A stretch of DNA of 64,000 nt from Escherichia coli (lineage in GTDB: Bacteria > Pseudomonadota > Gammaproteobacteria > Enterobacterales > Enterobacteriaceae), in assembly GCF_041886205.1 (NCBI RefSeq), contig NZ_CP169029.1; one strand, 5' to 3'. Of this stretch, positions 19,202 through 60,936 are shown piece by piece. How positions within the stretch are numbered: the stretch's first letter is position 1; every line of letters starts with the position of its first letter. The position numbers and the translations under genes were made by a program. The notes under the pieces were generated by a model. That model was given only the letters and a program-made list of their open reading frames with translations, did not search any database and was not told the origin of the DNA.

Positions 19202-19225
19202 TCCCGAATTGACGGTTAACTCGGG

Positions 19226-19259
19226 CATTCCCCTCTCCCCTTCGGGCTGAGGGGAATGA
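19226..19259. terminator. hairpin between convergent yaeH and cdaR
   Basis: 10-bp stem cattcccctc/gaggggaatg with 14-nt loop. Confidence 0.5.
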
Positions 19260-25918: not shown

Positions 25919-25945
25919 ATGTGCCGGATAGTTTATCCGGCACAT
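25919..25945. terminator. hairpin between convergent yadS and erpA
   Basis: Perfect 12-bp inverted repeat atgtgccggata-gtt-tatccggcacat. Confidence 0.5.
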
Positions 25946-35376: not shown

Positions 35377-35522
35377 AACGCTGGCGGGTTCGCAAGCGGT
35401 ACGCAATCTGAGCGTTCCTGAAGGGTTAATAAACAACCAGATGAAAAGAAAGGGTTAATACTTTGGGTGGGATGTTATTTTACCGGATGGCAACTCGCCA
35501 TCCGGTATTTCACGCTTAGACG

Positions 35523-38057
35523 TTAATTACTACCAAACATATCTTTAATCCAACCGGCTACACCGTCGCTGTCTTTCTGCTCTTGCTGAGCAGGTTGCTG
35601 TTGCGGCTGTTGCTGCGGCTGAGAAGACTGATCAAACGGATTGCTTGACGGCTGCTGCTGCATCTCACTCTGCTGGCACAGCGATTGCGGATCGCTGGTC
35701 CAGACCGGCAAGACACGCATGCCACCGCTGCAAACAAAGTTGCCGTCGTAGTCCACGCCCATATCTGCAATATCTTCTGGCGGAACAAGATTCAGCGGTG
35801 TTGGCGTCTGGTTAGCCAGATAACGCTGATAAATCGACATTGCCCCGCTGGCTCCATACAGTTTGGTCGGCTGGTTGTTATCACGGCCTACCCAGGTGAT
35901 GGTCACCGTGCTGCCGTCAATGCCCGCAAACCAGGTATCTACGTTATTGTTAGTAGTCCCTGTTTTCCCTGCCAGATGCAGGTTCGGGTATTTCGCCCCA
36001 AGCTGACGACCCGTACCGCGTTGTACCACCTGCTGCATGGTCCATAGTGTCAGATACGCCGCCTGCGCCGGAACAGCGCGTTCCGCCTGCGGGAAGCTCT
36101 GATACAGCACTTTGCCATCTTCCGCGATTACCGAACGCAGCGCAGAAAGCGGTGCACGGTTACCGCCGCTGGCGATGGTCTGGAATGCCTGCGCCACTTC
36201 GATTGGCGTTAAGTTCAACGCCCCCAGCAGCATCGCCGGAACCGGATGCAGCTGATCTTTCGGCACGCCCAGTTTGATCCAGGTCTCCGTAACCGCAGGC
36301 AGCCCCAGTGCCATCCCCAGATTTACCGTCGGCACGTTCATCGAACGGGTCAACGCATCCACCAGCATCACTCTGCCACTTTCGCTATAACGACGATCAT
36401 CGTTCTGCGGTGACCAGACCTGGCCATTCGGCTGACGCAGCGCGATTGGCGCATCCGCAATCCACGTGTTCAGGCGATAGATTTTCGGCTGGCTTAAGGC
36501 AGTCAGATAAGTCGCTGGTTTTGCAAGGGAACCAATCGAACGACGCGCCTGCATCGCACGGTTGTAGCCCGCAAACTGCGGCTCAGAACCTCCGACCATC
36601 GCACGAACTTCACCACTAAAGCGGTCGACGACCACAATCGCGGTTTCCAGATCGCTCAGCTTACGCTGTTTCTTCAGTGCCGGAATGCCTTCCACGGCGG
36701 CTTTTTCTGCCGCGTCCTGGGCCACCGAGTCAAAGGTAGTGAAGATCTTCACGCCGGACAGATCTTTTACCTTATCGCCTAATTTCTCCTGCAACTCCTG
36801 ACGCACCAGTTGCATAAAGGCTGGCTGTGGAGAGATTACCCCACCGCGCGGCTGTACGCCCAGAGGACGCGCGCTGAGCATTTCATACAGTTCACCATCG
36901 ATAATCTGCTGTTGTTGTAGCAAACGCAGCACCAGATTACGTCGCTCCAGCGCCAGTTTCGGGTTACGCCACGGGTTGTAGATGGACGCCCCTTTCACCA
37001 TGCCAACTAACAGCGCCTGCTGGTCAAGGCTCAACTCTTCTACCGGGCGACCAAAGTAGTACAGGCTCGCCAGCGGGAAGCCACGAATTTCGTTGTCGCC
37101 GCTCTGACCGAGATACACCTCATTCATATACAGCTCAAGAATGCGATCTTTGCTGTAACGCGCATCCATGATCAACGCCATATAGGCTTCGTTCGCTTTA
37201 CGCCAGTAAGAGCGCTCGCTGGAGAGGAACAGGTTTTTCACCAGCTGTTGCGTCAGCGTACTCGCACCCTGCACCGTGCGACCTGCGGTCAGGTTTGCCA
37301 GCACCGCACGTCCGATGGAGTAGAGACTGATTCCATCATGCTCGTAGAAATGGCGGTCTTCTGTCGCCAGCAAAGTATCCACCAGCAAATCCGGGAAACC
37401 ACTGCGCGGCACAAACAAACGCTGCTCACCGTTTGGTGAGGAGATCATGGTGATCAGGCGCGGATCAAGACGGAAGAAACCGAACTGACGGTTGTTCTCC
37501 ATATTGACGATCGTCGCCAGATGATCGCCATCAAAGGTCAGACGCGCGCGCACCTGTCCTTCTTTACTGTCCGGGAAATCAAACGGACGGCGAATCATCT
37601 CAATGCTGTTGGCCTGCACGGTAAATTCGCCAGGACGGGTCATTTTTGACACCTGACGATACTGGGTTGCCTCCAGCAGCTTCACCATCTCGTTCTTGCT
37701 GATGGTCATGTCTGGCTCAAGGTTGACCATTCGGCCATAAACTGCCGCAGGCAGTTGCCAGACCTTGCCATCAATACGGCTGCGAATTTTTTGATCGAGA
37801 TAAACGCCGTAAATGGCGATCAGCACGGCAAAAACGATAGCCAGTTTTAACAGCAGCCATAGCCAGCCGCGTTTGCCACGAGGCTTACGCCCTTTGCCTT
37901 TGCCCTTACCTTTGCGCGGCATCGGTTCTTCATCCTCATAGTCATCATAATCGTCGTAATCATCGTCATCTTCGTAACGACGACGGCTTACCTTTTGTTT
38001 GACCGGACGCGTCGGTTTCCCTTTGCGTCCAATTGGCTCGCGGTCATTCCCGGCCAT
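35523..38057 (-). CDS. mrcB: penicillin-binding protein 1B (bifunctional glycosyltransferase/transpeptidase), 844 aa
   Basis: Start at [14 protein letters not shown] (ATG 38057, GGAG RBS); acidic [15 protein letters not shown] tract, glycosyltransferase and transpeptidase motifs. Confidence 0.9.
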
Positions 38058-38153
38058 GCTTTTTCTCCGCAATATTCAGGCGCAAAAGCCCGATTTTCTG
38101 TTCTTCTGTTACAAGACAGAAGAAGATATCTCTCAAAATTTGTGCTCGATCGG

Positions 38154-38242
38154 TCCCCTCTCCCTTAAGGGAGAGGGTTAGGGTGAGGGTGAACGTGCGC
38201 GCTGATGCCCTCACCCCGGCCCTCTCCCACAGGGAGAGGGAG
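38154..38242. repeat. GC-rich palindromic extragenic repeat cluster (boxC/REP-like)
   Basis: Three adjacent dyads: cctctccc-ttaa-gggagagg, gggtgaggg...ccctcaccc, ccctctccc-acag-ggagaggg in the mrcB-hrpB spacer. Confidence 0.6.
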
Positions 38243-38252
38243 AAAACCAACC

Positions 38253-40682
38253 TTACGAATACTTTTTCGTCCGTCGCGTCGGTGCCGTGTTTGCCGGGTC
38301 GTCCGGCCAGACATGTTTGGGATAACGCCCTTTCATCTCTTTTTGCACCTCACGGTACGCTCCTTTCCAGAAGGCGCTCAAATCTCGTGTGATTTGTAAT
38401 GGCCTTTGGGCAGGGGAAAGCAACTCCAGCACCAGCGGCACGCGCCCCTGGGCGATCGTCGGATTGGTGGCCTCACCAAACATCTCCTGCATTCTCACCG
38501 CCAGCGCGGGCGGGTTATCTTCATGATAACGAATGGCGATCCGGCTTCCCGTCGGCACAGTGTAATGCGCAGGCAATTCACTATCCAGACGTTGCTGCAT
38601 TCCCCAATCAAGTAATCCGCGTAGTGCCTGATAAATGTCGAGTGATTTCAGGCCGCGTAGTGAATGCACGCCGGTCATATGTGGCAGCAGCCACGTTTCC
38701 AGCGTCGCCAACAAACTTTCATTATCAACCGCAGGCCAGTCATATTCCGGCAACCACTTTGCGGCGCATAACAAACGCAAGCGTAGCTGTTCCGCTTCCG
38801 CCGTCCAGTTGAGCACGCTTAAACCTTTATCACTAATGCCGTTAAGCATCGCCTGATGCAACTCGTCTTCTGACGGTTTCGCCAGTGGCTGCACTTTCAC
38901 CGTCAGCTGACCGATTTGCAGCCGACGCCAGGCTTTCAGCGTACCTTGCGCGTCATCCCACTCCACAGTGTCAGACTGCTGTACCAGCTGCGGGCAGCGT
39001 TGTACTAACTCATCAATATCGACCGGCAGCGCCAGTAAAATCCGCGCATCCGGCGAGGCGCTGCCCTGCAATAATAACGGTGCGATCAACCATTCGTGGC
39101 GGCTTAGCGCATCGTCGGCATCGAGCATCGCTCCCATGCCGTTTGCCAGTTGATAGCGTCCATCTTGCCCACGGCGATGAGCAATGCGATCGGCAAACGC
39201 CCCGGCAAGTAGCGGCGCGATAAGCGAACTGTCTGCCTCTCCGCCGCGTACGTTTAAGCGTTTTAACAGTTGCTGACTACGTTGCTGCCAGGCTGGTTGA
39301 TTGCGCGAAAACGCCACGCCCAGGTCACTATTGCCCATCCGTGGCGGCTCTTCGAGAATGGCGGCAATTTTTGCCGCGGTAGCAGCTTCGTCGTCGTTCT
39401 TTGCGCTAACCAGCATTGCCGCTAAACGCGGATCGTTACCCAGCGCTGCCATTTTTTGCCCCTGCGCACTAAGCCGTTCACCGTCCAGCGCCCCCAGCAT
39501 CTTTAACAGGCGTTTCGCGGCCAGTAAATTCACTGCTGGCGGTTGATCCAGCCAGCTCATCTGCGCCGGATCGCTGCATCCCCATTGCAGTAATTCCATC
39601 AGCAAACCGGAAAGATCGCTTTGTAAGATCTCCGGTTCACTTTGCGCGGCAGCGCGTTCTGCTTGTTCTTTGGCGATTAAATGCAGGCTGATACCCGGCT
39701 CCAGACGCCCGGCGCGCCCGGCACGCTGCGTCATCGACGCCTGACTGATTCGCTGAGTAATCAACCGCGTAAGCCCTGTTCGCGGATCAAAACGCGCCAC
39801 CCTTTCCTGGGCACAATCCACCACCAGACGAATACCTTCGATGGTTAAACTGGTTTCAGCAATATTGGTCGCCAGCACCACTTTGCGCATCCCTTGCGGT
39901 GCCGGAAGGATCGCTTTTCGCTGATCGTTCAGCGACAACGCGCCATACAGCGGGCAGAGCAACACATCACTGCCGATACGCGAAGCCAGTTGTTCCTGCA
40001 CACGCTGAATTTCTCCGACGCCTGGTAAAAATAACAGTAATGATCCACTTTCCTGACGCAGCATTTCAGCGGTGGCTACCGCAACGGCTTCGTCAAAACG
40101 CTGATGCGCGGGCAGCGGTAAATAACGGCGTTCAACCGGAAACGAGCGCCCTTCTGAGATGACGACGGGCGCTTCTGGTAGCATTTGTTGCAAGCGGTCG
40201 TTGTCCAGCGTAGCCGACATAATCAGCAGTTTAAGGTCATCACGCAGACCTTGTTGCACATCGAGTAACAGCGCCAACGCCAAATCCGCCTGCAAGCTAC
40301 GCTCATGAAATTCATCAAGGATCACCAATCCAACACCGCTCAACTCCGGGTCACGCTGGATCATCCGCGTCAGCACGCCTTCGGTAACTACTTCCAGGCG
40401 GGTATTCGGCCCGACGCAGTTTTGCGCACGCATCCGGTAGCCAACGGTATCGCCTGGCTTTTCGTTAAGCAGCTCCGCCAGCCGTTGCGCGACGTTACGC
40501 GCCGCCAGACGACGCGGCTCCAGCAGGATAATTTTCCCGTTAATGCCGGGATGCGCCAGCAGTTGCAGCGGCAGCCAGGTTGATTTCCCGGCCCCGGTCG
40601 GCGCACTTAATAATACCTGCGGCGCATAATCGAGAGCGGTAAGTAATTCAGGTAAGACGGCAGCAACGGGCAACGACGACAC
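38253..40682 (-). CDS. hrpB: ATP-dependent RNA helicase HrpB (DEAH-box), 809 aa
   Basis: Walker A APTGAGKST, DEFH box; start assigned to GTG 40682..40680 (VSSLPVAAVLPELL..., read as M); the ORF-track start at 40727 is probably too long. Confidence 0.85.
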   Translation of the reverse strand: MSSLPVAAVLPELLTALDYAPQVLLSAPTGAGKSTWLPLQLLAHPGINGKIILLEPRRLAARNVAQRLAELLNEKPGDTVGYRMRAQNCVGPNTRLEVVTEGVLTRMIQRDPELSGVGLVILDEFHERSLQADLALALLLDVQQGLRDDLKLLIMSATLDNDRLQQMLPEAPVVISEGRSFPVERRYLPLPAHQRFDEAVAVATAEMLRQESGSLLLFLPGVGEIQRVQEQLASRIGSDVLLCPLYGALSLNDQRKAILPAPQGMRKVVLATNIAETSLTIEGIRLVVDCAQERVARFDPRTGLTRLITQRISQASMTQRAGRAGRLEPGISLHLIAKEQAERAAAQSEPEILQSDLSGLLMELLQWGCSDPAQMSWLDQPPAVNLLAAKRLLKMLGALDGERLSAQGQKMAALGNDPRLAAMLVSAKNDDEAATAAKIAAILEEPPRMGNSDLGVAFSRNQPAWQQRSQQLLKRLNVRGGEADSSLIAPLLAGAFADRIAHRRGQDGRYQLANGMGAMLDADDALSRHEWLIAPLLLQGSASPDARILLALPVDIDELVQRCPQLVQQSDTVEWDDAQGTLKAWRRLQIGQLTVKVQPLAKPSEDELHQAMLNGISDKGLSVLNWTAEAEQLRLRLLCAAKWLPEYDWPAVDNESLLATLETWLLPHMTGVHSLRGLKSLDIYQALRGLLDWGMQQRLDSELPAHYTVPTGSRIAIRYHEDNPPALAVRMQEMFGEATNPTIAQGRVPLVLELLSPAQRPLQITRDLSAFWKGAYREVQKEMKGRYPKHVWPDDPANTAPTRRTKKYS

Positions 40683-47347: not shown

Positions 47348-49969
47348 ATGACGACGCCTTTCAACGGCACAAAATTTCCCCTCTCTCCACTCGCTTGTCT
47401 GGTGGCGTTCAGTCTGCTGCCCTGCGCCTACAGCGCCATGGCGGCAGAGGAAGCTGTTGAATTTGATAACACCTTCCTGATGGGGGCCGGTGCCAAAAAT
47501 ATCGACGTCAATCGCTACAGTGATGGCAACCCCGCATTGCCAGGCCGTCACGACGTAAGCGTGTTTATCAACAATAAGCCGATCAGCAATCTGTCCATGG
47601 AGTTTATTGAAATAGCGAATAGCCGTAGCGCCAAACCCTGTATCTCTGCCAGCACCCTGCTCCAGCTGCATATTCGCCTGCCGGATAATCTCGACGATAC
47701 GGCGATTTTGCAAAAGCGCGACAGTACCGCGCAGGACTGTCTTAATCTTGAGGTCGCCATTCCCCAGTCCAGCCTCACCTATAACAGTAACGATCAGCGG
47801 ATGGACATTAATGTGCCTCAGCTGTGGTTACAAAAAACTTACGCTAACTATGTGGATCCTTCCCTGTGGGACGAAGGGATCAACGCAGCCATGTTTTCTT
47901 ACACGCTGAATGGCTGGCGCAGTGAATCGCCCGATCAAACCGCAGAGAGTACCTATGCCGGGCTGATGGGCGGCTTTAATTTATGGGGATGGCATTTCCG
48001 TTCGCACGGCAACTATTCATGGGACAAAGAGAGTGGCGGCAGTTTCGAGTTCCAGGACAAGTACCTGCAACGTGATATCACCAGGCTGCGGTCACAACTG
48101 GTTGTCGGTGAAACCAACACTACGGGGGAAACCTTTGATTCCGTTCGTATTCGCGGTGTTCGTCTCTACAGCGAAAGCCGCATGCTGCCACCGACGCTCG
48201 CCTCTTACGCGCCGGTGATCCGTGGGGTCGCGAACTCCAACGCCAAAGTAACAATTACCCAGAACGGCTACAAGATTTACGAAACGACGGTGCCGCCAGG
48301 CCCCTTTGCTATCGATGATTTGTCGCCAGCCGGATTTGGTGCCGATCTCGAAGTCACGGTCACCGAGTCTGACGGCTCACAGCGAACATTCACTCAGGCC
48401 TATTCGTCGGTGATCCAGATGATGCGCCCCGGCGTGGGCAAATGGGACATCAGCGCGGGTGAAATCAAAAAAGATGAGCTGAAGGACAAGCCCAATCTGA
48501 TACAGGGAACGTACTACTACGGGTTAAGTAATACGTTTACCGGCTATACCGGCCTGCAAATGACCGATAACGGCTACTGGGCCGGATTGTTAGGCCTTGG
48601 GATGAACACCTCATTGGGGGCATTTTCTCTTGATGTGACGCAGTCGCACACCGAAATCCCCAACGACAAAACCTATGAGGGCCAGAGCTACCGTATTTCG
48701 TGGAACAAATATTTTGCACCGACCGAAACGTCACTCAACATTGCGGCCTATCGCTACTCGACAAAAAACTATCTCGGTTTGAACGACGCCCTGACGCTGA
48801 TCAACGCTGCTAACCATCCTTATGATGAAGGTTACAAGGGAATCGTCTCCTATGGGCGTATGAAAAACCAGTTCAGCGTCAGCCTCAACCAGACGTTAAA
48901 AAATAGCGAGCGGGATTATGGTTCCTTCTACTTGAACGGGACATGGACGGACTACTGGGCCACTAATGAATCACAGAGTAGTTTTGCGTTTGGTTACAGC
49001 AGCGGCTTTGACTGGGCCAGCTACAGCGTCAGCCTGCAACGTACCTATGACGAAGACAATAACAAAGATGACTCTATCTATCTCAGCCTGACCATTCCGC
49101 TGGACAAACTGTTCGGCAGCGATAGCCGCGAAGGTGGCTTTAGGACACTGAATACCAGCGTCAACAGCGATATGAAGGGCAGTTCGCAATACAACGCTAA
49201 TGCCACCGGCTACAGCCAGGACAACCGCTGGAACTACAGCGTCAACACCTCCTATAACGCATTGAAAGAGACGGAAAGCCTGAAAACCATCAGTGGTTTC
49301 ACCAGCTATGAGTCACCCTGGGACACCCTTTCCGGTTCCGTCTCCGCCAGTAGCGACCACAGTCGTCAGTATGGCGTGAGTACCGATGGCGGCTTTGTGT
49401 TACATCGCCACGGGCTTACGTTCAGTAACGACAGCTTTACCGATTCAGACACGCTGGCGCTGGTCAACGCCCCCGGCGCGAAAGGTGCGCAAATTAACTT
49501 TGGCAGCAGTACCGTGGACCGATTTGGCTACGGGGTAACCAGTGCGCTTTCTCCGTATCATGAAAACACCGTCGCCCTCAACGTGGACAACCTGGATGAA
49601 GATGTGGAACTGAAAAGCACCAGCACCGTCGCGATCCCGCGCCAGGGTGCGATTATCTTCAGCCATTTCGACACCGACACCGGGCGTTCAGCCATTCTTA
49701 ACCTGCTGCGCAGTGATAAGCAGCCCGTACCGTTTGCTTCCGATGTGACAGACAGCAGCGGGCAGTCCATCGGCACAGTTGGGCAAGGGAGCCAGGCTTT
49801 CGTTCGCGGCATTGCCGACGAAGGGGAGCTGGTGGTTTCCTGGTATGAAAAAAATAGCCAGAAACAGTGCCGCATTCACTACCAGATACCGCCCTCTCCC
49901 ACCATGACGGGCAAAACTATCGTATTAAACGCCGTGCCCTGCACCCTGCAATCACAGGAGAGGAAATGA
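47348..49969 (+). CDS. htrE: fimbrial outer membrane usher HtrE (873 aa)
   Basis: 873-aa ORF with signal peptide and usher-size beta-barrel protein between chaperone and minor subunits. Confidence 0.9.
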   Translation: MTTPFNGTKFPLSPLACLVAFSLLPCAYSAMAAEEAVEFDNTFLMGAGAKNIDVNRYSDGNPALPGRHDVSVFINNKPISNLSMEFIEIANSRSAKPCISASTLLQLHIRLPDNLDDTAILQKRDSTAQDCLNLEVAIPQSSLTYNSNDQRMDINVPQLWLQKTYANYVDPSLWDEGINAAMFSYTLNGWRSESPDQTAESTYAGLMGGFNLWGWHFRSHGNYSWDKESGGSFEFQDKYLQRDITRLRSQLVVGETNTTGETFDSVRIRGVRLYSESRMLPPTLASYAPVIRGVANSNAKVTITQNGYKIYETTVPPGPFAIDDLSPAGFGADLEVTVTESDGSQRTFTQAYSSVIQMMRPGVGKWDISAGEIKKDELKDKPNLIQGTYYYGLSNTFTGYTGLQMTDNGYWAGLLGLGMNTSLGAFSLDVTQSHTEIPNDKTYEGQSYRISWNKYFAPTETSLNIAAYRYSTKNYLGLNDALTLINAANHPYDEGYKGIVSYGRMKNQFSVSLNQTLKNSERDYGSFYLNGTWTDYWATNESQSSFAFGYSSGFDWASYSVSLQRTYDEDNNKDDSIYLSLTIPLDKLFGSDSREGGFRTLNTSVNSDMKGSSQYNANATGYSQDNRWNYSVNTSYNALKETESLKTISGFTSYESPWDTLSGSVSASSDHSRQYGVSTDGGFVLHRHGLTFSNDSFTDSDTLALVNAPGAKGAQINFGSSTVDRFGYGVTSALSPYHENTVALNVDNLDEDVELKSTSTVAIPRQGAIIFSHFDTDTGRSAILNLLRSDKQPVPFASDVTDSSGQSIGTVGQGSQAFVRGIADEGELVVSWYEKNSQKQCRIHYQIPPSPTMTGKTIVLNAVPCTLQSQERK

Positions 49970-60896: not shown

Positions 60897-60905
60897 AAAT
60901 GCCAT

Positions 60906-60926
60906 GCCGGATGCAACACATCCGGC
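60906..60926 (-). terminator. hairpin between convergent can and hpt
   Basis: gccggatg-caaca-catccggc; on the minus strand followed by ATGGCATTTTTATTT. Confidence 0.6.
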
Positions 60927-60936
60927 AACTTCACAC

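Follow-up and report, generated by a model that had tools for sequence, protein, structure and literature searches.

A BoxC inverted pair and a conserved mrcB promoter holding a covarying dyad make up the hrpB–mrcB spacer of Escherichia coli

The spacer between hrpB and mrcB in Escherichia coli is a mosaic of two unrelated parts. We analysed it in a stretch of 64,000 nucleotides (nt) from NCBI RefSeq assembly GCF_041886205.1 (contig NZ_CP169029.1; the whole stretch is referred to here as the window, and positions are counted from its first letter), in which it spans 38058–38252 and, at 195 bp, has the same length as in K-12. The part next to hrpB (approximately 38141–38252) is an inverted pair of GC-rich units of the dispersed BoxC family, and the part next to mrcB (38058–38136) comprises the promoter and leader of mrcB and includes a perfect dyad that covaries across species. 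The best joint explanation, to which we assign a probability of roughly 0.7, is that a BoxC inverted pair lies at the tail of the hrpB RNA and is followed by a conserved mrcB promoter that holds the dyad. Window and K-12 positions are related by window = 202787 − K-12 coordinate, with no insertions or deletions between the two here. A 501-bp query around the spacer found matches in 5,425 of 5,426 complete E. coli genomes, with annotated mrcB and hrpB (BLAST). For comparison between species we used 81 sequences, namely the window and the mrcB loci fetched from 80 Enterobacteriaceae species. The features of the BoxC part, in the direction of hrpB transcription, are as follows.

38253–38255, minus strand: hrpB stop codon TAA, from the open reading frame table and the annotation of identical E. 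coli records; the hrpB coding sequence lies at higher coordinates
38241–38252, minus strand: tail of the type B unit (plus-strand AGAAAACCAACC), which pairs weakly with the opposite flank in the predicted long hairpin
38207–38240, minus strand: BoxC/PIT/TMECO type B unit CCCTCTCCCTGTGGGAGAGGGCCGGGGTGAGGGC, identical to TMECO no. 1 (Holder 2015); its G-rich part is HPG2
38191–38206, no strand assigned: central spacer of the inverted pair, GAACGTGCGCGCTGAT (16 nt), the apical part of the predicted long hairpin
38156–38190, plus strand: BoxC/PIT/TMECO type A unit CCCTCTCCCTTAAGGGAGAGGGTTAGGGTGAGGGT, which is TMECO no. 2 with a single-nucleotide polymorphism in one loop (TTGA to TTAA); its G-rich part is HPG1
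38141–38155, minus strand: type A tail, reading GACCGATCGAGCAC in the sense direction and kept as GGGGAC(C/T)G... in other copies
38151, minus strand: published 3′ end of hrpB-sense RNA (K-12 164636; Adams 2021 Term-seq, supplementary files 1 and 3)

The GC-rich cluster is a copy of BoxC, which is also the PIT (potential intrastrand triplex) element, the TMECO triplex motif and HPGQ, and it is already known at this locus. An earlier note on this DNA, made from the sequence, had described the dyad and the GC-rich hairpin arms, all of which are present where it placed them, and had read the arms as three consecutive hairpins. The motifs are real, and they are better described as two tripartite units, one of type A and one of type B, that form an inverted pair. 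Unit A (plus strand, 38156–38190) reads CCCTCTCCC-TTAA-GGGAGAGGG-TTA-GGGTGAGGG-T, and unit B (minus strand, 38240–38207) reads CCCTCTCCC-TGT-GGGAGAGGG-CCG-GGGTGAGGG-C. The CCCTCTCCC/GGGAGAGGG hairpins occupy 38156–38177 and 38220–38240, and the GGGTGAGGG/CCCTCACCC arms lie at 38181–38189 and 38208–38216. These motifs are far above chance: a pattern scan of the window gave two matches to CCCTCWCCC-N0-12-GGGWGAGGG, compared with 0.00 expected, and eight matches to GGGWGAGGG in 64 kb, six of them in the spacer, compared with 0.54 expected. Two solo GGGAGAGGG-type motifs lie outside the spacer, one at 19225–19255 (within CCCCTCTCCCCTTCGGGCTGAGGGG), which could be a degenerate hairpin, and one at 49892–49900 that looks like chance. 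Both units follow the BoxC unit rule, CCCTC(T/G)CCC-loop-GGG(G/A)AGAGGG-(TTA or CCG)-GGGTGAGGG, and the pairing rule holds as well, with the TTA-loop and CCG-loop units on opposite strands around a centre of 16 nt. BoxC was probably first seen beside envM; a copy does sit upstream of fabI/envM. BoxC is not known to have a RAYT-type transposase.

The published catalogues agree with this assignment. Unit B equals its table entry exactly and unit A does so except for one loop base, the locus being listed as TMECO no. 1 (type B, K-12 164547–164580) and no. 2 (type A, 164631–164597) among the 23 intergenic units that K-12 carries at 18 loci (Holder 2015). In that work, paired copies are always inverted and consist of one type A and one type B unit, and the TMECO motif is equated with the PIT element described by the Maher laboratory and with BoxC, a repeat known from the 1990s; we take the equivalence of the names used by Bergler 1992, Bachellier (1990s) and Hoyne/Maher 2000 from Holder 2015. 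A survey of stem-loop families gives BoxC a length of 56 bp and 32 copies. The same hrpB>mrcB locus appears in the HPGQ tables as HPG1 #6 and HPG2 #5 (Kaplan 2016), with GGGAGAGGGTTAGGGTGAGGG (38169–38189, plus strand) identical to HPG1 and GGGAGAGGGCCGGGGTGAGGG (38232–38208, minus strand) identical to HPG2. HPGQ is thus another structural reading of the same DNA, offered with no mention of BoxC. For consensus oligonucleotides, published circular dichroism and nuclear magnetic resonance data support a triplex (Holder 2015) or a hairpin and G-quadruplex (G4; Kaplan 2016). The pair in the window has the C9-loop-G9-loop-G9 unit, the inverted A and B arrangement and the intergenic position of the BoxC/PIT/TMECO family and differs from it in nothing essential; it is a textbook BoxC pair at a published position and nothing new in kind.

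The earlier note had proposed counting copies of the repeat, which proved not to be unique. A 97-nt query for the element hit 45,355 places in 4,524 E. coli genomes by BLAST. The number per genome has a median of 8 and reaches 22 at most; 39 places are on plasmids and the rest are chromosomal. At the hrpB–mrcB locus itself the pair varies between strains, and at least 80% of the 501-bp query was covered in only 3,535 of the 5,426 genomes. BLAST joins flanking matches when an allele is empty or inverted and so yields no exact frequencies, and we estimated them from an evenly spaced sample of the BLAST ranking together with an alignment of representative alleles. In this sample, approximately 60–65% of E. 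coli genomes have the full BoxC pair at the spacer, and approximately one-third, including O25:H4-type strains, have an empty spacer of 93 bp that lacks it. In a partial allele, a 64-bp deletion between two direct CCCCTCTCCC repeats leaves a single hairpin; slippage alleles have deletions of 6 bp and 12 bp within unit A; and in a rare allele of the ABW_A19 type, found at 100% identity in at least 11 genomes, the pair as a whole is reversed and has other junctions, which points to inversion of the whole segment or to independent insertions. The segment concerned is 228–487 of the ABW_A19 locus and 38141–38252 of the window. The tail of unit B (AGAAAACCAACC), when inverted, resembles the 'empty' spacer of Escherichia albertii, and the AGAAAA tail also follows the B unit in the inverted allele and in other genera. 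The K-12 pair and the one in the window are distinguished by one loop base.

Other species show the same pattern of gain in this spacer. In 19 of the 80 other Enterobacteriaceae species, the stretch from 90 to 500 nt upstream of mrcB contains 1–5 full BoxC units, oriented either way, indicating that the spacer has been colonised repeatedly; these units often stop approximately 11 nt short of the conserved TTGAGA block described below. Far more rearrangement has been reported around TMECO loci than around controls (Holder 2015), and the instability from strain to strain found there is also seen at the hrpB–mrcB locus. Given that about one-third of E. coli genomes lack the pair, neither hrpB nor mrcB needs it, and any function for the host is non-essential. 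The pair is a non-coding, dispersed and strain-variable insertion between the hrpB stop codon and the mrcB promoter that is prone, at the DNA level, to slippage, deletion and inversion.

As hrpB/mrcB-sense RNA, the pair with its flanks is predicted to fold into one long hairpin (−75.5 kcal/mol, z = −8.1; our folding covers Watson–Crick structures). A single long hairpin, at −66 kcal/mol, is approximately 9 kcal/mol better than the three separate hairpins of the earlier note, at −57 kcal/mol. A curated Term-seq 3′ end at K-12 164636 (window 38151), where the RNA reads ...GGGAGAGGGGACCG up to its last base (Adams 2021), lies 5 nt past the last stem G of this hairpin. Three further BoxC copies, at 632098, 4231270 and 3781065 (where it is the primary end of lldD), have an end at the equivalent offset in the same dataset, and two more, at 847200 and 3959467, have one nearby; the RNAs that end at other copies typically do so directly after ...GGGGAC(C/T)G. 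This recurrence suggests a family-wide role at RNA 3′ ends. Because Term-seq ends recur at the bases of BoxC hairpins, we infer that the hrpB RNA has its 3′ end either set or protected by the hairpin, as REP elements do. In this mechanism, the pair would be transcribed as the tail of the hrpB RNA, units A and B would pair to form one GC-rich hairpin of approximately 90 nt, and the hairpin would either halt RNA polymerase inefficiently or, more probably, block 3′-to-5′ exonucleases, so that the RNA ends 5 nt past its base.

Several observations count against a role for the hairpin at the hrpB 3′ end. A simple promoter and terminator scan of 37900–38450 on both strands found no promoter, no terminator-like site and no U-tract after the BoxC hairpin, the sequence directly after it being GACCGAUCGAGC and not a U-run. 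Reporter assays of PIT elements in the Maher laboratory gave no terminator or promoter activity, as related by Holder 2015, and with approximately one-third of genomes lacking the element, the stability of the hairpin may by itself leave a 3′ end as a side effect. The missing U-tract, the negative PIT reporters and the strains that lack the element speak against the pair being a true terminator. The suggestion in the earlier note that it terminates hrpB therefore survives as far as the mapped RNA end, here and at other BoxC copies, and is doubtful as regards termination proper.

The alternative that survives best holds that the BoxC pair has no RNA or regulatory role at all and is a selfish or accidental non-B-DNA repeat (triplex or G-quadruplex) with effects limited to local instability, the RNA 3′ end being incidental. 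We place it just short of an even chance. It is in keeping with the triplex formed in vitro, the excess of rearrangement and the lack of bias towards any functional class among neighbouring genes in Holder 2015, with the hairpin/G4 equilibrium that Kaplan 2016 describes for the same sequences, and with the empty, partly deleted, slipped and inverted alleles found at this locus. It does not readily account for RNA 3′ ends at the same hairpin offset at at least six loci, or for an element kept at 98–100% identity in approximately 60% of E. coli genomes, although neither of these is proof of a selected function. The published DNA-level reading (triplex or G4, with instability) is in any case compatible with the RNA 3′-end reading. 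What we add to the description of the BoxC family is that the hairpin base marks the end of hrpB-sense RNA at this locus and of RNAs at other copies, and that the pair occurs in either orientation depending on lineage.

In the other part of the spacer, conservation across the 81 sequences starts sharply at TTGAGAGAT(A/T)TCTTCTT and runs to the mrcB ATG in every case; upstream of this TTGAGA block, sequences from different genera are unrelated. Cappable-seq of EDL933 records a single mrcB transcription start site (TSS) at 169023 in all eight conditions, with the mrcB start at 169053, and it maps to window position 38087, which leaves 30 nt up to the ATG. Six bases upstream of this TSS stands a hexamer that reads GAAAAT in E. 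coli and fits nA(G/A)AAT in 81 of 81 species. The promoter has no recognisable −35 hexamer. A peak of RNA polymerase holoenzyme from systematic evolution of ligands by exponential enrichment (SELEX) lies at K-12 164658, or window 38129. We take 38058–38136 to be the mrcB promoter and its 30-nt leader, conserved throughout the Enterobacteriaceae, in the order 14-mer (−48 to −35), 23-bp gap, −10 element GA(G/A)AAT, GC-rich discriminator and TSS, as follows.

38122–38135, minus strand: invariant 14-mer TGAGAGATATCTTC at −48 to −35, candidate RcsB box from conservation, the box definition and PrprA geometry
38101–38124, minus strand: perfect dyad TTCTTCTGT-CTTGTA-ACAGAAGAA (sense) at −37 to −14 relative to the TSS, conserved, covarying and hairpin-capable
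38093–38098, minus strand: −10 hexamer GAAAAT (family consensus nA(G/A)AAT), from the 81-species alignment and the TSS
38088–38092, minus strand: GC-rich discriminator CGGGC, between the −10 hexamer and the TSS
38087, minus strand: primary TSS of mrcB, 30 nt before the ATG (EDL933 Cappable-seq; sequence identical to the window here)
38058–38086, minus strand: 30-nt mrcB leader, with Shine–Dalgarno sequence GGAG at 38065–38068 and the start codon at 38055–38057

The discriminator is GC-rich in all species, reading CGGGC in the window and C(A/G/T)GGC across the set; GC-rich discriminators are typical of promoters that are sensitive to ppGpp and DksA. A published promoter prediction, TTGAGA-17-TGTAAC, was rejected: it places the −10 within the dyad's loop, which is variable, and this −10 has neither of the key positions A2 and T6 and is not conserved. 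The prediction is also inconsistent with the mapped TSS. An extended −10 at TGaGAGAT was dropped once the TSS had been located. Two published results weigh against a single start at 38087. Kim 2012 gives mrcB a weak TSS 495 nt upstream, inside hrpB (K-12 164235, window approximately 38552), and a 5′ end at −9 from rapid amplification of cDNA ends (5′-RACE) is on record for mrcB. Ettwiller 2016 lists no coordinates near 1646xx–1647xx in its supplementary data.

The dyad is meaningful as a structure. Its arms (38101–38109 and 38116–38124) have 9 nt each, are 100% complementary and enclose a loop of 6 nt. A lone perfect inverted repeat of 9 bp is not remarkable by itself, the window having 11 such sites compared with approximately 2 expected from Markov simulations; the dyad owes its significance to conservation, not to 9-bp perfection. 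In the 81-sequence alignment, 91.5% of the cells of a 10-pair helix are paired, compared with 46–60% in slid-partner controls, and in six pairs both partners have changed. Doubly changed cells number 92, compared with 33.8 in shuffles, and none of 500 shuffles came up to the observed count. RNAalifold recovers the same helix, and each species' hairpin folds better than its own shuffles (mean z = −4.6; mean −11.2 kcal/mol). Sequence conservation is at least 90% in the outer arms; the inner stem occurs in 54 distinct variants, most of which pair fully, and the loops show no constraint. Mismatches are strongly asymmetric, with 78 G.T or T.G cells compared with 18 C.A or A.C cells, and 57 compared with 3 in the four inner pairs, implying that it is the mrcB-sense strand that pairs as a single strand. 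The covarying stem, free loop and strand-asymmetric wobble look like a nucleic-acid hairpin and argue for this over a palindrome read by a protein. An Rfam scan of 37000–39500 (E ≤ 10) returned nothing on the dyad. A second RNA hairpin, at C(A/G)GGC...GCCUG, was rejected, as its helix has no double changes and straddles the TSS.

With the TSS 14 nt downstream, the dyad occupies −37 to −14, outside the main 5′ untranslated region. The proposal in the earlier note that it is a structure of the mrcB 5′ untranslated region does not hold for the main transcript, whose only mapped primary TSS lies downstream, and a hairpin at the 5′ terminus of the mRNA was dropped for the same reason. The dyad fills the −37 to −14 interval of a promoter without a −35 element and is kept hairpin-capable by compensatory changes. 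Pairing of the sense strand as a single strand fits poorly with a site upstream of the main TSS. A hairpin of this kind could form in read-through RNA or in transcripts with a long leader, or as DNA on the lagging-strand template; correction by template switching is a further candidate.

It is possible, though rather unlikely, that the dyad acts as RNA, forming a leader hairpin in mrcB transcripts that have a long leader or read through from hrpB, in which it would tune stability or translation; it could, for example, sequester a CU-rich UUCUUC complementary to the Shine–Dalgarno region GGAGAA. The covarying stem with its free loop, and the wobble bias (78 to 18) under which only the mrcB-sense strand stays paired, are what such a role would leave, and Kim 2012 assigns far-upstream TSSs to mrcB in both E. 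coli (−495) and Klebsiella (296 nt upstream, −296). Those long transcripts, if real, would include both the BoxC pair and the dyad. Cappable-seq in eight conditions, by contrast, has a single TSS, downstream of the dyad; there is no conserved promoter upstream of TTGAGA and no Rfam match; and the Term-seq data record neither a 3′ nor a 5′ end at the dyad hairpin.

An operator role had also been raised in the earlier note. In this reading, which seems improbable to us, a dimeric regulator on the outer half-sites TTCTT/AAGAA of the dyad would repress or remodel the promoter. The interval from −37 to −14 suits it, being typical of repressors and of regulators that bind the promoter spacer, the outer arms are at least 90% conserved, and the RNA polymerase SELEX peak overlaps the dyad. 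The inner stem, however, varies freely as long as it stays complementary (GC, AU, UA and CG all occur at pair 26:35), and neither this freedom nor the strand-asymmetric mismatches are expected where a protein reads duplex DNA. We found no match to the motif of a known regulator; LexA and EvgA were set aside, the former because its spacing would be wrong and the latter because its site would not be conserved. Less probable again is that mutation alone maintains the complementarity, by template switching at a quasi-palindrome whose outer arms serve as anchors and owe their own conservation to something else. Paired arm changes are the expected product of template-switch correction, and the mrcB-sense strand, judging from gene orientation in K-12, is the lagging-strand template on which such hairpins form; the process would nevertheless need to act continuously in 81 lineages, and by itself it gives no reason for G.T to outnumber C.A by 19:1 in the inner pairs.

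Beside the dyad lies the invariant 14-mer, which reads TGAGAGAT(A/T)TCTTC across species and occupies −48 to −35. The RcsB box is defined as TN(G/A)GAN4TC(T/C)NA, and of the 8 positions that it specifies, the mrcB 14-mer TGAGAGATATCTTC fits 7; this agreement, and with it the core TNRGAN4TCY, is found in 81 of 81 species. The candidate box lies 23 bp before the −10 element and just upstream of the −35 position, where no good −35 is found, which is the placement seen at PrprA (box TGAGACGAATCTGA at −49 to −36, 23 bp before the −10 TACTAT). The two promoters share the TGAGA-N4-TCT core, a box position that matches closely (−48 to −35 in mrcB), the 23-bp gap from box to −10 and the absence of a recognisable −35. 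They differ in that the mrcB box ends in C, that mrcB has a conserved dyad in the gap, which PrprA lacks, and that mrcB is active in all conditions sampled. According to a review, Ferrieres and Clarke 2003 saw an approximately 2-fold Rcs-dependent rise in mrcB, which the review calls the only such mention.

Two points tell against the assignment: the last specified position in mrcB is C rather than A, and the relaxed pattern is not rare, with 6 matches in the window compared with 17 expected by chance, such that the pattern match taken alone is not significant. As the relaxed pattern is common by chance, the mrcB box is a lead from position and conservation, not a demonstration. We tentatively put forward the 14-mer as an RcsB box, with the odds leaning somewhat against it. 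More speculative, and unlikely on present reckoning, is the broader proposal that the dyad and the invariant block together form a family-wide control element for PBP1b. This would be an RcsB-box promoter without a −35, the gap of which holds a compensatory hairpin of the sense strand; it would link Rcs directly to mrcB, and the hairpin would be a structured core-promoter element that depends on a single strand or would act on read-through RNA entering the promoter. In the literature that could be searched we found no account of the mrcB promoter block, of an RcsB-like box with PrprA geometry or of the covarying dyad; a search for a description of the mrcB promoter turned up plasmid names only. 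Read from alignments and published maps, this conserved block with its RcsB-like box and covarying dyad would be a new but modest finding.

The earlier note had likened the GC-rich cluster to boxC/REP-type families. The boxC half of this stands, the locus being in both the TMECO and HPGQ catalogues and the element dispersed; the REP half does not, as 38058–38252 contains no imperfect palindrome of approximately 35 bp of the GCCGGATG...CATCCGGC type. A REP/BIME element, or a canonical intrinsic terminator composed of three independent hairpins, has a negligible probability as an identity for the cluster and is refuted at the sequence level: the cluster is extragenic, palindromic, GC-rich and just past a stop codon, but has no REP consensus and no T-run, the terminator scan was empty and the single long hairpin is the more stable fold. 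In the Rfam scan of 37000–39500 (E ≤ 10), the GC hairpin drew only microRNA-model noise, at most 26.5 bits compared with gathering thresholds of at least 74 bits. As a working analogy, BoxC resembles REP/BIME in being a GC-rich palindrome outside genes that follows a stop codon and has an RNA 3′ end at the hairpin base; its sequence is unrelated, its design is a tripartite purine/pyrimidine mirror and 3′ stabilisation by BoxC is putative only. Perfect palindromes of a REP-like GCCGGAT type do occur elsewhere in the window (25919–25945, 35481 and 60905–60927); those at 25919–25945 and 60905–60927 show that the window does contain genuine REP elements, distinct from the spacer cluster. At 35481–35507, 16 nt past the mrcB stop codon, there is a perfect 11-bp hairpin, TACCGGATGGC-N5-GCCATCCGGTA, which is likely to be a 3′-end structure of mrcB in the mrcB–fhuA spacer.

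For the BoxC family, the recurrent 3′ ends at its hairpins suggest a REP-like role that was not considered in the earlier, DNA-centred work on BoxC, PIT and TMECO. The more useful result is the anatomy of the mrcB promoter, in which a site that resembles an RcsB box and has the geometry of PrprA stands with a covarying dyad beside a mapped TSS. According to a review, E. coli has few known transcriptional regulators of its peptidoglycan synthases. If control by RcsB holds, envelope stress would directly raise the level of PBP1b, the synthase needed for cell-wall repair and β-lactam tolerance.

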